Source: a virus. From it: 64,000 nucleotides of DNA. Made by a program: the position numbers and the translations under genes. Below, one piece after another: positions 28,254 through 63,989 of this stretch (position 1 is its first letter; each line of letters begins with the position of its first letter). The notes under the pieces are model-generated. The model was given only the letters and a program-made list of their open reading frames with translations. It made no database searches and was not told the origin of the DNA. The stretch lies in IMG/VR virus record IMGVR_UViG_3300010263_000119. One strand, 5' to 3'.

Positions 28254-28341
28254 CACCCTCTTGAAACCGCGATTTCTCACGCGAAGCCCCGCGCCCGATC
28301 TTCATCGCGCAATTTGTAGGTTTTCAGACCCCCCTACCCCC
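28254..28341 (-). other. Putative cos (packaging) region, copy 1
   Basis: GC-rich segment between HNH and terS (usual cos position), with G-run and CGGGCGCGGGGC. Confidence 0.7.
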
Positions 28342-28687
28342 AGCGGTCGCCGCTTTTTGCTGTAATGCTGCTGTGGCACGTTTTGCACAGACTCATGAGA
28401 TTGTCATCATCATGCGTTCCGCCTTTGGACAGGGGAATGATATGGTGTACTTCCTCTGCCGGAGTCAACCTGTTATTCTTAAAACATTCCTCGCACAACG
28501 GATGTGCCTTTATATACCTGTCCCTTATGCATTTCCACGCCCTGCCGTAACGTTTGCGGTGCTCGGGATTGCGTTGGTATTTGTTGTATTGTTTGTCCGT
28601 CAGCTTTTGATGTTCTTCGCAGTACCTTCCGTCGGTAAGTCTCGGACATCCCGGGTAAGAGCACGGCCGCTTTGGCTTTTTTGGCAT
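28334..28687 (-). CDS. Packaging-associated HNH endonuclease
   Basis: KRPCSYPGC, HPLCEEC, HHIIPLSKGG, NLMSLCKTCH. Confidence 0.93.
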   Translation of the reverse strand: MPKKPKRPCSYPGCPRLTDGRYCEEHQKLTDKQYNKYQRNPEHRKRYGRAWKCIRDRYIKAHPLCEECFKNNRLTPAEEVHHIIPLSKGGTHDDDNLMSLCKTCHSSITAKSGDRWG

Positions 28688-28713
28688 CTATCCACCTCCT
28701 TCGGAAAAAAGAA

Positions 28714-28978
28714 AAGCCATTACAGGATGCGCTCTCCCGCAATGGCTTGTGTTTATACTATTTCTGCAAGTATATCATAACACAACAGTCATAGTAGAAA
28801 ATAGTAGAATTTACTGTACACTTTTTTGCATAATTCAAATATTACTAGATGTCAAGTCGATTTTGTCACAGGAAAGCCACCGCAGGATTTTATTCCCGCG
28901 ATGACTAATCTTTTTTCTATTTTTGCAAGTATATCATAGCACAATGGACATAGTAGAAAACAGTAGAATTTACTGTAC
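28714..28978 (-). promoter_or_regulatory. Tandemly duplicated late promoter plus hairpin unit
   Basis: 55-bp repeats 28765-28819 and 28924-28978 (50/55 identical) with TTCTACT x2 and TG-TATGAT; hairpins 28714-28748 and 28875-28906. Confidence 0.75.
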
Positions 28979-60653: not shown

Positions 60654-62186
60654 TTAAACTGTAACCCTTATCCCTGCCAAAAATATTACTGTCAGTTTCC
60701 CGTCCGGCGTGACTTCTATATGATCCAGGATTTTTAGAGATAACTCATAATCAAACTTGTTCAGTTTTTGGCCTGATTTCATTAAATCAATTAATTCCTG
60801 TGCCCTGTATCTTGTAAGTAAGTTCTCGCCTTCTATTGCTCGTTCAAGGACGGGCAAGTAATCTTCACGGTTACTGATTATCTGGTTGTATGCTTTCACA
60901 AATGCTGCTTCCGGTAGCTTTGCATCAATCTCAACATCAGTGCAAAGCATTGGCCGTTCTTGCAGCAGCTTTCTGCGCTTGGCAAGCTGCTCTGCTTGTT
61001 TTCTGTTTGGCGGATGATTGTGCCTTTGTGGCATTGGCGGCGGAGTAAAGGTTTTGCCCTCAACCACGGTGCCATTCTTTCCTCTAAAGCTGCCGCACTT
61101 CCAGTACTTTTTTCCTTTGTCGCATACTCGTTTTGATTCCAATAATACAAAAACAGACCCGCATGTCGAACAAGTTATCCTTGCTGACAGCGGGTTTTGT
61201 TCACTACTTCTATGATAAACGCTGATATGATGGTCCATGCAATACTGCTTTTGCCTTGCAAGCTCCAATTGCACGCACTCCCATATATCCTTTTCAATTA
61301 TTGCTTCATGGCTGTTTTCAAGATAATATTTGTGAAGCTCACCGTTGTTTTTTAGTTGTTTCTTTGTGATGTGGTCTGCATGATAGGTTTTCTGAAACAT
61401 AATGTCACCTTTATATTTCTCATTAGTAAGCATTTTTTTGAAACAGCTTATATTCCATTCGGAGTTGCCTGTTTCAGTAGGAATACCGTCTGAAGTAAGC
61501 CTTTCGGCAATTCGAGTAAAGCTGTGACCGTCAAGAAACTCCTTGTAAATTCTGCGAACGACAGCGGCTTGTTCTTCGTTTACAATCAATTTACCGTCAA
61601 TCTTGTCATAACCATAAAACTTGCCAAGAGGCACACTCTTGATGCTGCCCGATTCATATTTGCGTCTAAGACCCCATTTGATATTCTCAGATAATGCAAG
61701 GCTCTCAGTTTCTGCTATCGCGGAAATCAGCGTAAGCAGCATTTCTCCCTGACTGCTTAATGTATGCAGCCTTTCCTTCTCGAAATATATATCCACACCA
61801 ATCTCTCTAAGCTCTCTTACAACTTTTAAGGTGTCAACCGTATTTCTGGCAAACCTTGATACGCTTTTGGTAATTATCATATCAATTATGCCTTTTCTGC
61901 AATTCTCTATCATGCGATTAAAGGATTCCCGGCTTGCGCTTCCGGTGCCGCTGATGCCCTCATCGGCATAAATGCCGGCAAATTCATAGTCCGGATTTGA
62001 AGTTATGTACTGTTTGTAATAGTCAACCTGCGCCTTTAAGCTGTGCAGCTGTTCATCACTTTTGCTTGAAACCCTGCAGTATGTCGCAACGCGCTTTATT
62101 GAGTTTTTTCCGCCATTGTTTTCACTTCTTGTCTGCGGGTAAAAGGTAATAACTTTTCTTTCTCTTATTCGTTTCTCCATTTTCAT
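60654..62186 (-). CDS. Large serine recombinase
   Basis: YCRVSS, YADEGISGT, SRFARNT, NEKYKGD, zinc ribbon. Confidence 0.93.
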   Translation of the reverse strand: MKMEKRIRERKVITFYPQTRSENNGGKNSIKRVATYCRVSSKSDEQLHSLKAQVDYYKQYITSNPDYEFAGIYADEGISGTGSASRESFNRMIENCRKGIIDMIITKSVSRFARNTVDTLKVVRELREIGVDIYFEKERLHTLSSQGEMLLTLISAIAETESLALSENIKWGLRRKYESGSIKSVPLGKFYGYDKIDGKLIVNEEQAAVVRRIYKEFLDGHSFTRIAERLTSDGIPTETGNSEWNISCFKKMLTNEKYKGDIMFQKTYHADHITKKQLKNNGELHKYYLENSHEAIIEKDIWECVQLELARQKQYCMDHHISVYHRSSEQNPLSARITCSTCGSVFVLLESKRVCDKGKKYWKCGSFRGKNGTVVEGKTFTPPPMPQRHNHPPNRKQAEQLAKRRKLLQERPMLCTDVEIDAKLPEAAFVKAYNQIISNREDYLPVLERAIEGENLLTRYRAQELIDLMKSGQKLNKFDYELSLKILDHIEVTPDGKLTVIFLAGIRVTV

Positions 62187-63288
62187 CTTCCCAAGCAACC
62201 CAGTCTCCCTGCAAATGATCATCGGTCGTTATCCTATACAAAATATCTTCAGGTATAAAAATGCCTTCACAAGTTTTCTTTCCATGCTTCAGATAGGTAC
62301 TGCATACCCAGTCAACTCCCCAGGGCGATTTCTTTCTTATAAGCACCCCTCCGCATTTATAGCAATGCAGCCTGCCACTAAACGGGTATGTTCTTTTCTG
62401 GCGGCTTTTTCTTATCTCCTGTGCTCTCTGCCAATCTTTACGGCTTATGATTGCTTCATGGTTATCGTGGATGTAATACTGGCTGATTTGACCTTTATTT
62501 CTTCTTTGGTTACCGTATTCATCAACAAAGGATTTTTGAAGCAGAACATCGCCCATATATTTTTCATTTGATATGATTCTCAATACCCGTTGACCGCTCC
62601 AGGGATAATTATTATATGTCGGTATTTTTAGCTCATTTAATTTTTGGGCTATTTTTTCAGCCGGCGTTCCGTCCAAATACTCTCTAAAGATTAACCTTAC
62701 AATTTCAGCTTGCTCCTCATTGATTACGAGATGTCCTTTTTCATCTTTGTCGTATCCCAGCAACTTGTTTGTATTCATCTGAAAAATCCCTTGCCGGTAC
62801 TTTTTGCGTACCGACCATTTGACATTTTCGCAAACAGCTTTCCGTTCTTCCTCCGCAAAGGAACCAAGCAAGGTTAACAATATCTCGCCTGCCAATGAAA
62901 AGCTTGTTATATTCTCTTTTTCAAAATACACATCCACTCCGGCCTCTCTTAATTTCCGAATTGTTGTTAAAAGAAAAATAGTGTTTCTGGCAAAGCGGGA
63001 AATTGACTTTGTAATAATCAAATCTATTTCGCCGTTATATGCCTTCTTAAGCATTTCATTAAGACCGGGGCGGCTTTCGCTCAAACCTGACACACCGGTA
63101 TCCGAATATACACCGCAAAACTCATAATTGGGATTTCTTAATATGTACCGGGTGTAATATTCTATTTGATTTTCCAAAGAGTTTATTTGCAAATCGTGTT
63201 TTGTGGATACCCTTACATAGGCGCAAACCCTCTTTTTACGCCAAGGAAGTTTATTATTTACTGTTACTTGGACATTTCTTTTTTGCAT
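62122..63288 (-). CDS. Large serine recombinase
   Basis: YVRVST, SRFARNT, NEKYMGD, CYKCG. Confidence 0.93.
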   Translation of the reverse strand: MQKRNVQVTVNNKLPWRKKRVCAYVRVSTKHDLQINSLENQIEYYTRYILRNPNYEFCGVYSDTGVSGLSESRPGLNEMLKKAYNGEIDLIITKSISRFARNTIFLLTTIRKLREAGVDVYFEKENITSFSLAGEILLTLLGSFAEEERKAVCENVKWSVRKKYRQGIFQMNTNKLLGYDKDEKGHLVINEEQAEIVRLIFREYLDGTPAEKIAQKLNELKIPTYNNYPWSGQRVLRIISNEKYMGDVLLQKSFVDEYGNQRRNKGQISQYYIHDNHEAIISRKDWQRAQEIRKSRQKRTYPFSGRLHCYKCGGVLIRKKSPWGVDWVCSTYLKHGKKTCEGIFIPEDILYRITTDDHLQGDWVAWEDENGETNKRKKSYYLLPADKK

Positions 63289-63904
63289 GACTTTTTACCT
63301 CACAATCTATATTCCACATAAGCTCTGTACCGTCCCGAAATATGAACAGCGCCTTATCTTCGGAAATCACCTTCACAACATTTATAACTGCCTGCCACAC
63401 CATGTCATCGAATTGATCGAGCGGGTTTTGGTGTTTTTGCAGTTCCCTTAAAAACCCTGTAATCTGCAGCCTTTTTGCCGCGCATTTGTTTATTTTTGAA
63501 ATCACCTGTTCCCGCTGCTGTTGCAGCTTCTCATGTCGCTTTACATATTCATTATATTTTGCATCATAATCCTTTTTATCGATTATAGTCTGTGCATTGG
63601 CTGATATGAGCCTTTCTATGAGAACATTGATCTCTTCGCATTGCTTGTCGAGTTCTTCCAGTTGCATCACATAGGCACTGTCATCAGTTATGGCATCTAA
63701 AATAAGGTTGTAGTTTTCGATAATCTCGTCTTTATTGTCAATGATGCTGTTGAAGGCTTCAATAAACGCCTTTTTGATTGCGTTTTCTTTTAAGGTCGGA
63801 GTTGTGCAATATTTTCTTTTGGTAAATTTATTGTTGCAGTGCCATACAAACGTTTCATACTTGCTGCCTGCATGCCATACCTTCCTTCCGTAAAAACCAC
63901 CGCA
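63254..63904 (-). pseudogene. 5'-truncated large serine recombinase (zinc ribbon and coiled coil only)
   Basis: CGGFYGRKVWH...WHCNNKF...CTTPTL; frame closed by TGA at 63928-63926 within cos-like DNA. Confidence 0.85.
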
Positions 63905-63989
63905 CCCTCTTGAAACCGCGATTTCTCACGCGAAGCCCCGCGCCCGTTCTGGGGTGAAAGAAGGTAGAAATTTAGACCCCCCTCCCCCT
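63903..63989 (-). repeat. Second copy of the cos-like region
   Basis: 63903-63946 is identical over 44 bp to 28254-28297; AGACCCCCCT recurs at near-identical spacing. Confidence 0.9.

Follow-up and report, generated by a model that had tools for sequence, protein, structure and literature searches.

The window analysed here, i.e. the whole stretch of 64,000 nucleotides of the virus record IMGVR_UViG_3300010263_000119, carries two copies of a 44-bp repeat (the 44-mer), copy 1 at 28254-28297 and copy 2 at 63903-63946. Copy 1 is positioned between the gene for an HNH endonuclease and terS in the packaging module of a Heliusvirales-like prophage, while copy 2 is found close to the right end of the window, where it borders a truncated serine recombinase gene. 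We provide data suggesting that copy 1 is part of the probable cohesive-end site (cos) of an intact prophage and that copy 2 is what remains of the corresponding region of a sister prophage.

The two copies are identical over 44 of 44 bases (47 of 48 when taken over 48), have the same orientation and are 35,649 bp apart. Allowing up to three mismatches, the 44-mer has these two occurrences only in the window, and none was detected in 100 shuffled sequences. The sequence AGACCCCCCT (the G-box), for which 0.04 matches are expected by chance, is present at 28326-28335 and 63974-63983 only and sits 28 nt (copy 1) and 27 nt (copy 2) past the 44-mer. Alignments revealed that the spacers between the G-box and the 44-mer have diverged strongly between the copies. 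The original prediction, which described 44 identical bp and a AGACCCCCCT box at near-equal spacing with a diverged spacer, is thus borne out on these points.

Copy 1 belongs to a full cos-type intergenic region (28241-28340, minus strand) composed of the G-box, the 28-nt spacer, the 44-mer and a palindrome, GGGTGATATACCCC, at 28245-28258. It is flanked by the HNH endonuclease gene of the packaging module (28334-28687, minus strand; PF01844, E = 7.7e-15), the stop codon of which overlaps the G-box, and by terS of the P27/Terminase_4 family (27676-28218, minus strand; PF05119), which shows 69.7% identity to the phi1605 homologue. The true ATG of terS is at 28218-28216, preceded by the ribosome-binding site AGGCAGGTG, and the longer listed open reading frame (ORF), reaching 28305, runs across the repeat. 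The HNH/site/terS context recurs with an identical core in six contigs (L008, L009, L010, L012, L059 and L060). Moreover, an architecture of ≈105 bp is kept in 11 aligned phage contexts, which include Candidatus (Ca.) Heliusvirales genomes and Streptococcus, Terrisporobacter and Erysipelothrix phages, as well as in a small element represented by contig L061 (see below). A G-run box and, after it, AAATCTCTAC come first; a free spacer separates them from a CGGGCG-GGGG block, next to which are an A-rich core and, finally, a GGGG/AT-rich/CCCC palindrome. In the aligned contexts, this palindrome directly precedes the terS ribosome-binding site. As far as could be found, this structure of G-box, free spacer, 44-mer core and GGGG-AT-CCCC palindrome is undocumented.

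In HK97-like phages cos is located between HNH and terS, and since copy 1 occupies this very position and all of its blocks are conserved among relatives, we consider it to be part of a probable cos region. None of 33 related phage records has terS at its end, so none is oriented at the cos-type site, and our search for mapped virion termini returned none for any member of the Heliusvirales-like HNH group. The Rfam scan gave no family anywhere in the window, and neither a consensus fold of the cos-type region (-2 kcal/mol) nor covariation was found; a structured RNA was thereby ruled out as the nature of the repeat and the region looks like a DNA site that is read by proteins. The 44-mer would then be the most constrained block of a site recognised by packaging proteins and common to this group of related phages, which would account for its identity in the two copies, with the spacer being free to vary.

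Copy 2 is a stretch of 92 bp (63903-63994, minus strand), out of the about 105 bp of a complete site, and comprises the G-box, the 27-nt spacer and the 44-mer. Block alignment shows that it fits the phage cos family block for block, with a spacer unlike that of copy 1, and that it breaks off in the middle of the palindrome such that neither the distal palindrome arm nor the terS side is present; this arm is kept in every full site aligned, the satellite-like L061 included. In place of HNH and terS, copy 2 is flanked by an IS21-type insertion sequence (IS) and the truncated recombinase gene. The different spacer within the same family suggests that copy 2 derives from another, sister phage, and that it is a related element rather than a simple duplication, as also proposed in the original prediction; no phage carrying its spacer was detected among the viral contigs searched.

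The truncated gene (63254-63902, minus strand), which adds to the genes listed earlier for the interval, begins exactly at copy 2 and has kept codons for 216 residues, the C-terminal part of a third serine recombinase from the second zinc-ribbon Cys onwards. Upstream, a TGA within the 44-mer closes the reading frame, and the N-terminal resolvase catalytic domain and the recombinase domain of the large serine recombinases (LSRs) are absent. Copy 2 is joined to the zinc-ribbon codons through microhomology, and the same junction recurs in many independent assemblies and, with single-nucleotide polymorphisms (SNPs), in the metagenome-assembled genome (MAG) G001, where the 57 kb around the junction have only two further short pieces matching the window (55 and 48 bp). 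On the basis of these sequence features, we infer that copy 2 is a non-functional relic of the cos region of a sister prophage. Specifically, most of the packaging/late region of the sister prophage would have been lost, with 92 bp of its cos region surviving as copy 2, and an illegitimate, microhomology-mediated deletion would have fused this remnant midway into a serine recombinase gene, the first of three, while an IS21-type element would have inserted where the HNH gene of the sister would be.

With respect to the prophage, the order on the minus strand is replication genes, DUF1492 activator, HNH, repeat, terS, ParB-methylases, amidoligase, terL, portal, ClpP, capsid and tail/lysis genes. 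The late arm (1-27675, minus strand; Pfam and collinear contigs) includes terL (20612-22219), the HK97-type capsid gene (17315-18595), an amidase gene (1690-2307) and the start of an LSR gene, LSR-a (1035), all on the minus strand. Also present in this arm are two ParB-methylase genes and genes for an amidoligase, portal, ClpP protease, tail and baseplate proteins, a holin and a sigma-like protein. Between terS and terL there is ≈5.5 kb of cargo (22302-27651), an unusual placement inside a packaging module; it contains the two paralogous ParB-N6/N4 methylase genes, which share a 285-nt repeat (72% identical), and the amidoligase gene, among others. The early and replication arm (28688-39187, minus strand) carries DUF1492, prim-pol, PolA, DUF7307, SNF2, HNH_3 and a sigma-like gene. 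It is followed on the plus strand (39654-50771) by a helix-turn-helix (HTH) repressor, ImmA and an operon encoding SNF2-NOV_C, a DUF1156 methylase and HEPN-DUF499; the GC content of this segment is like that of the phage and it is probably prophage cargo.

In a collinear contig, the lysis genes are succeeded, just left of the window, by an integrase pair of 401 and 525 aa (LSR-a and LSR-b) and then by ordinary host genes; hence, the prophage starts ≈2 kb left of the window. A split integrase of the Mx8 kind, in which attP lies within the recombinase gene, was ruled out, the LSR at the left end being complete and having its own zinc ribbon. On the right, the convergent intergenic region 50772-51228 (no strand assigned), which has three terminator-like hairpins and coincides with the GC drop and with assembly breaks, is probably both the right end of the prophage and the left end of a low-GC island. 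Specifically, the GC content near 51 kb drops from about 0.45 to 0.34, assemblies fragment at 50.76-51.07 kb where the depth is raised, and a 55-bp piece (51067-51121) has a counterpart (96%) at the edge of an island in MAG G001. Moreover, the island, which carries a kinase-NTPase operon, was not seen in contigs from X13 and X14 (runs from other studies) that hold relatives of the recombinase region, uncovered regions being no proof of absence. Taken together, these data would place the right end at about 50.8-51.1 kb and give a genome of about 53 kb. In the same region, a 50-nt hairpin (50854-50903) occurs in several other contexts of a source-like run, and the sequences at 50854-51121 may be small repeated elements or associated with attachment (att) sites. 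No att sites were identified; there is no tRNA, and the two junction regions share only weak, promoter-like similarity. No informative empty site was found in relatives, and megablast gave no match to close DNA relatives for 17-40 kb of the window.

The two sites had been taken in the original prediction to bracket a satellite-like replicon. The genes that it listed for the interval agree with our Pfam assignments, i.e. HNH, the DUF1492 activator, prim-pol, PolA, SNF2, HTH and ImmA, the SNF2/DUF1156/DUF499-HEPN operon, the kinase-NTPase operon and two full-length serine recombinases, with no structural genes; in addition, we find an IS21-type gene pair just outside the window end. The satellite itself is not supported. 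The replication genes, repressor/ImmA, activator and HNH constitute the early arm of the prophage and are contiguous with its structural genes, the integrase pair and the host junction lie left of the window, the remainder is the island and the recombinases of the sister, and copy 2 is truncated and also found without this phage context in the MAG. Thus, the interval of 35.6 kb consists of the early arm of the prophage with its cargo operon, the low-GC island with the kinase-NTPase operon and a 514-aa protein of unknown family (51229-60243, minus strand; GC, Pfam), and the recombinase module of the sister, and a patchwork of three such units is no discrete replicon. It is bounded by the repeats only and not by an integrase and att boundaries of its own. 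Furthermore, its prim-pol, PolA and SNF2 genes share their strand with the late genes, with which they are contiguous, and related phages show the same arrangement of replication and late genes. With 35.6 kb against about 53 kb (≈67%) its size does not match the phage genome, no size-redirection factor is apparent, and Pfam revealed neither a capsid homologue nor a scaffold gene in the interval.

The recombinase module of the sister element encompasses the two full-length serine recombinase genes (60654-63288, minus strand), encoding 522 and 388 aa. The four full-length recombinases (388, 522, 401 and 525 aa) are 40-46% identical among one another, and the prophage (L025:11273-14055) and the sister (60654-63288) each carry a short-plus-long recombinase tandem. 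The locus would represent a prophage adjoined by a low-GC island, with what is left of a decayed sister prophage at the far end of the island.

Beyond copy 2 the window ends with the bases TGCAAA (63995-64000, minus strand), the first of a putative IS21-type terminal repeat. The IS21-type pair, an rve protein of 488 aa and an IstB protein of 228 aa encoded in tandem within about 2.3 kb (Pfam), has the istA/istB arrangement of IS21. It was identified in collinear contigs, i.e. L001, which is 100% identical to the last 800 bp of the window, and NODE_273 (73.9 kb), which by coordinates is collinear with the whole window. A candidate pair of 14-nt termini with TG...CA ends, TGCAAACAATCGCA and TGAGATTTTTTGCA, would put the end of the IS at window position 63995. 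We did not detect any target duplication at this element, the metagenome scan gave no independent copy of it, nor did 151 genomes of the order, and exact look-ups of IstA and IstB returned the same contig only. To the right of the IS (L001:1-9300) there are genes for AbiEii, a 481-aa PglZ-domain protein or fragment and a UPF0236-family (PF06782) protein, which look like remnants of other defence systems, and contigs from many samples break in this region.

The metagenome scan also revealed other junctions at the relic. In L062, L073 and L078 the IS tail and the relic are joined to a phage tail gene instead. The joining point corresponds to position 10127 of the window, with the strand unchanged, and a variant of the resident phage matches the flank at 91% identity. 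In the intact tail gene the sequence is GAGCAGTG-CGGCGG, compared with GAGGGTG-CGGCGG at the junction, and the zinc-ribbon codons of the recombinase, TGCGGTGG, almost match this tail-type junction. Unrelated DNA adjoins the relic in L058. The sequence GTGCGG is common to the recombinase, tail and L058 junctions, which argues for microhomology-mediated rearrangements of one locus and not for transposition. One sample contains both the recombinase-type and the tail-type junction, and the contigs with the latter are all <3 kb. A further flank, AAAAAGATTTTTATATGACAAAGGCCAAAA, follows the 44-mer in run X1, such that at least three, perhaps four, sequences come after the same nucleotide; the X1 flank was not found among the viral contigs. 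These intermediates from the same sample series illustrate how a prophage loses its late genes by microhomology steps anchored at the cos core.

The variety of right flanks has bearing on whether copy 2 might have arrived by other routes. If the IS21-type element and captured cos DNA were transposing as one unit, the right flanks would be insertion sites. The constant association of the IstB tail with the relic, whose right flanks are of at least three kinds and start at precisely one breakpoint, is in keeping with this, as are the many contigs that break inside the IS and suggest several copies or variants. However, there is no inverted 44-mer at the other end of the IS, the unit would end in TG while members of the family end in CA, and the better terminal pair puts the IS end 92 bp upstream. 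In addition, the junctions are without target duplications, each of them overlaps GTGCGG in the target as in microhomology joining, the same right flank is seen with two different left flanks, and a further copy of the IS is lacking in the genomes of the order, and we therefore regard transposition of such a unit as very unlikely. The 44-mer itself was ruled out as an IS21 terminus by the absence of an inverted copy, the wrong dinucleotide, the microhomology junctions and the alignment with the cos family. A chimeric join through a repeat present in the community would make copy 2 an assembly artefact; the 44-mer exceeds common k-mer sizes, within the same samples it is found in several contexts, and it is a point of contig breakage. 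Yet the identical junction was obtained in SPAdes, MEGAHIT, JGI and Logan assemblies of many samples and, with SNPs, in an unrelated MAG, and because it is reproduced in many independent assemblies chimerism can be excluded for practical purposes.

Alternatively, both copies could be functional cos sites, with the terminase cutting at each of them and packaging the 35.6 kb in between as a satellite-like mini-genome. The identical 44-mer and G-box in direct orientation would allow this, and, by analogy with lambda and HK97, packaging would proceed towards terS such that it would start at copy 2 and end at copy 1. The replication, repressor and recombinase genes of the interval, the breakpoint that is reused in three junctions and the invariance of the 44-mer in relic copies, in which the adjoining bases differ, could also be understood in this way. 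Nevertheless, copy 2 is without the distal palindrome arm and the terS-proximal side, both kept by every full site including that of L061, and the interval is a patchwork of three elements. Lambda packaging has size limits, and the interval corresponds to only ≈67% of the phage genome. Packaging from cos is size-sensitive (PMC5052747). Moreover, the relic is also found where no partner site is present, after excision copy 2 would have no downstream partner cos, and no hybrid junction, as would result from cos-to-cos circles or from recombination between the repeats, was seen among the scanned loci, which is weak evidence as the collections are small. We consider packaging from cos to cos very unlikely. 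Much the same low probability is given to the related idea that the resident terminase/HNH continues to bind or cut the relic, with either cos-to-cos transduction of the 35.6 kb or recurrent breaks at the relic as the outcome. If true, the island and the early arm of the prophage could be transduced as a 35.6-kb unit, and recurrent breaks would explain both the breakpoint shared by the three rearrangements and the invariant 44-mer.

Considering the data as a whole, we find it likely that the window carries an intact Heliusvirales-like prophage of about 53 kb, with copy 1 at the usual place between HNH and terS, and next to it a relic of a sister prophage. Several observations nevertheless weigh against this combination. 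All junction variants share one left breakpoint, which random deletion would not predict. No substitution was detected in the 44-mer when the window was compared with the G001 relics while the adjoining 48 nt differ at five positions; this is weakly compatible with continued selection, our own estimate of P ranging from very small to low. Cleavage could take place within the G-box, an element that is still present in copy 2. That copy 2 is outside the excisable unit is deduced for a prophage whose right att was not identified. The window stops at 64000 and the IS is seen in collinear contigs only. Finally, the label cos for the intergenic region, although well founded, is derived from position and conservation.

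In this scenario, i.e. an intact prophage and a relic of its sister, the apparent defence-laden satellite would be an intact prophage lying next to a ruined relative, which is what prophage decay commonly produces. The Heliusvirales-like HNH phages are a very common gut and bioreactor lineage, and the comparative definition of their probable cos region provides a target for terminus mapping.

A better candidate for a satellite of the Heliusvirales-like phages is the small element in L061 (1-4895; also L069:6500-12101 and L070-L072), which has the identical 44-mer together with an intact palindrome. The order of its parts is a Prim-Pol gene with a primase C-terminal piece, three CGTCAGTAA repeats, the cos region, a capsid homologue, a tyrosine integrase and a DNA-binding protein. 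The capsid homologue is full-length and of HK97 type (33% identity to the capsid of the window phage, E = 2e-66), and the primase looks split. Window-like contigs were obtained from the sample series that also yielded L069, and a source-like run contains a variant of the L069 flank. We put this element forward as a candidate satellite on the basis of its gene content.

Comparing the locus with known systems, the order HNH, intergenic site and Terminase_4 terS at copy 1 is that of the HK97-type packaging module, and the HK97-type terL, portal, ClpP protease and capsid genes of the window phage conform to it, while the ≈5.5 kb of cargo that parts terS from terL does not. The module reportedly consists of an HNH endonuclease, cos, a P27-family terS and terL, as Kala et al. 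are said to have described in 2014. In the staphylococcal phages phi12/phiSLT, an HK97-type packaging module with HNH, cos and a P27-family terS is present (PMC5052747). The element beside copy 2 resembles the IS21 family in its tandem genes for an IstA DDE transposase and an IstB ATPase and in its candidate TG...CA ends, but no target duplication was seen at it and its ends are deduced from a single copy. SaPIbov5-type phage-inducible chromosomal islands carry a helper cos site and the capsid homologue Ccm (PMC5052747, PMC8569155). The interval between the copies shares with these satellites the idea of a helper cos on non-phage DNA; unlike them it has no boundaries of its own, no separate replication/induction module and no capsid-size factor, it exceeds known satellites two- to threefold in length, and one of the two 'cos' sites is a truncated one. 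The L061/L069 element, with Prim-Pol, cos, capsid homologue and integrase, is far closer to SaPIbov5 and its Ccm than the interval is. Decaying tandem or cryptic prophages are similar to what is seen here: the late genes of the sister are lost, an IS is present at the breakpoint, the recombinase genes are kept and less-deleted intermediates occur in the community. The difference is that the piece surviving in the window is exactly the cos core and that its breakpoint has been reused in at least three GTGCGG junctions.

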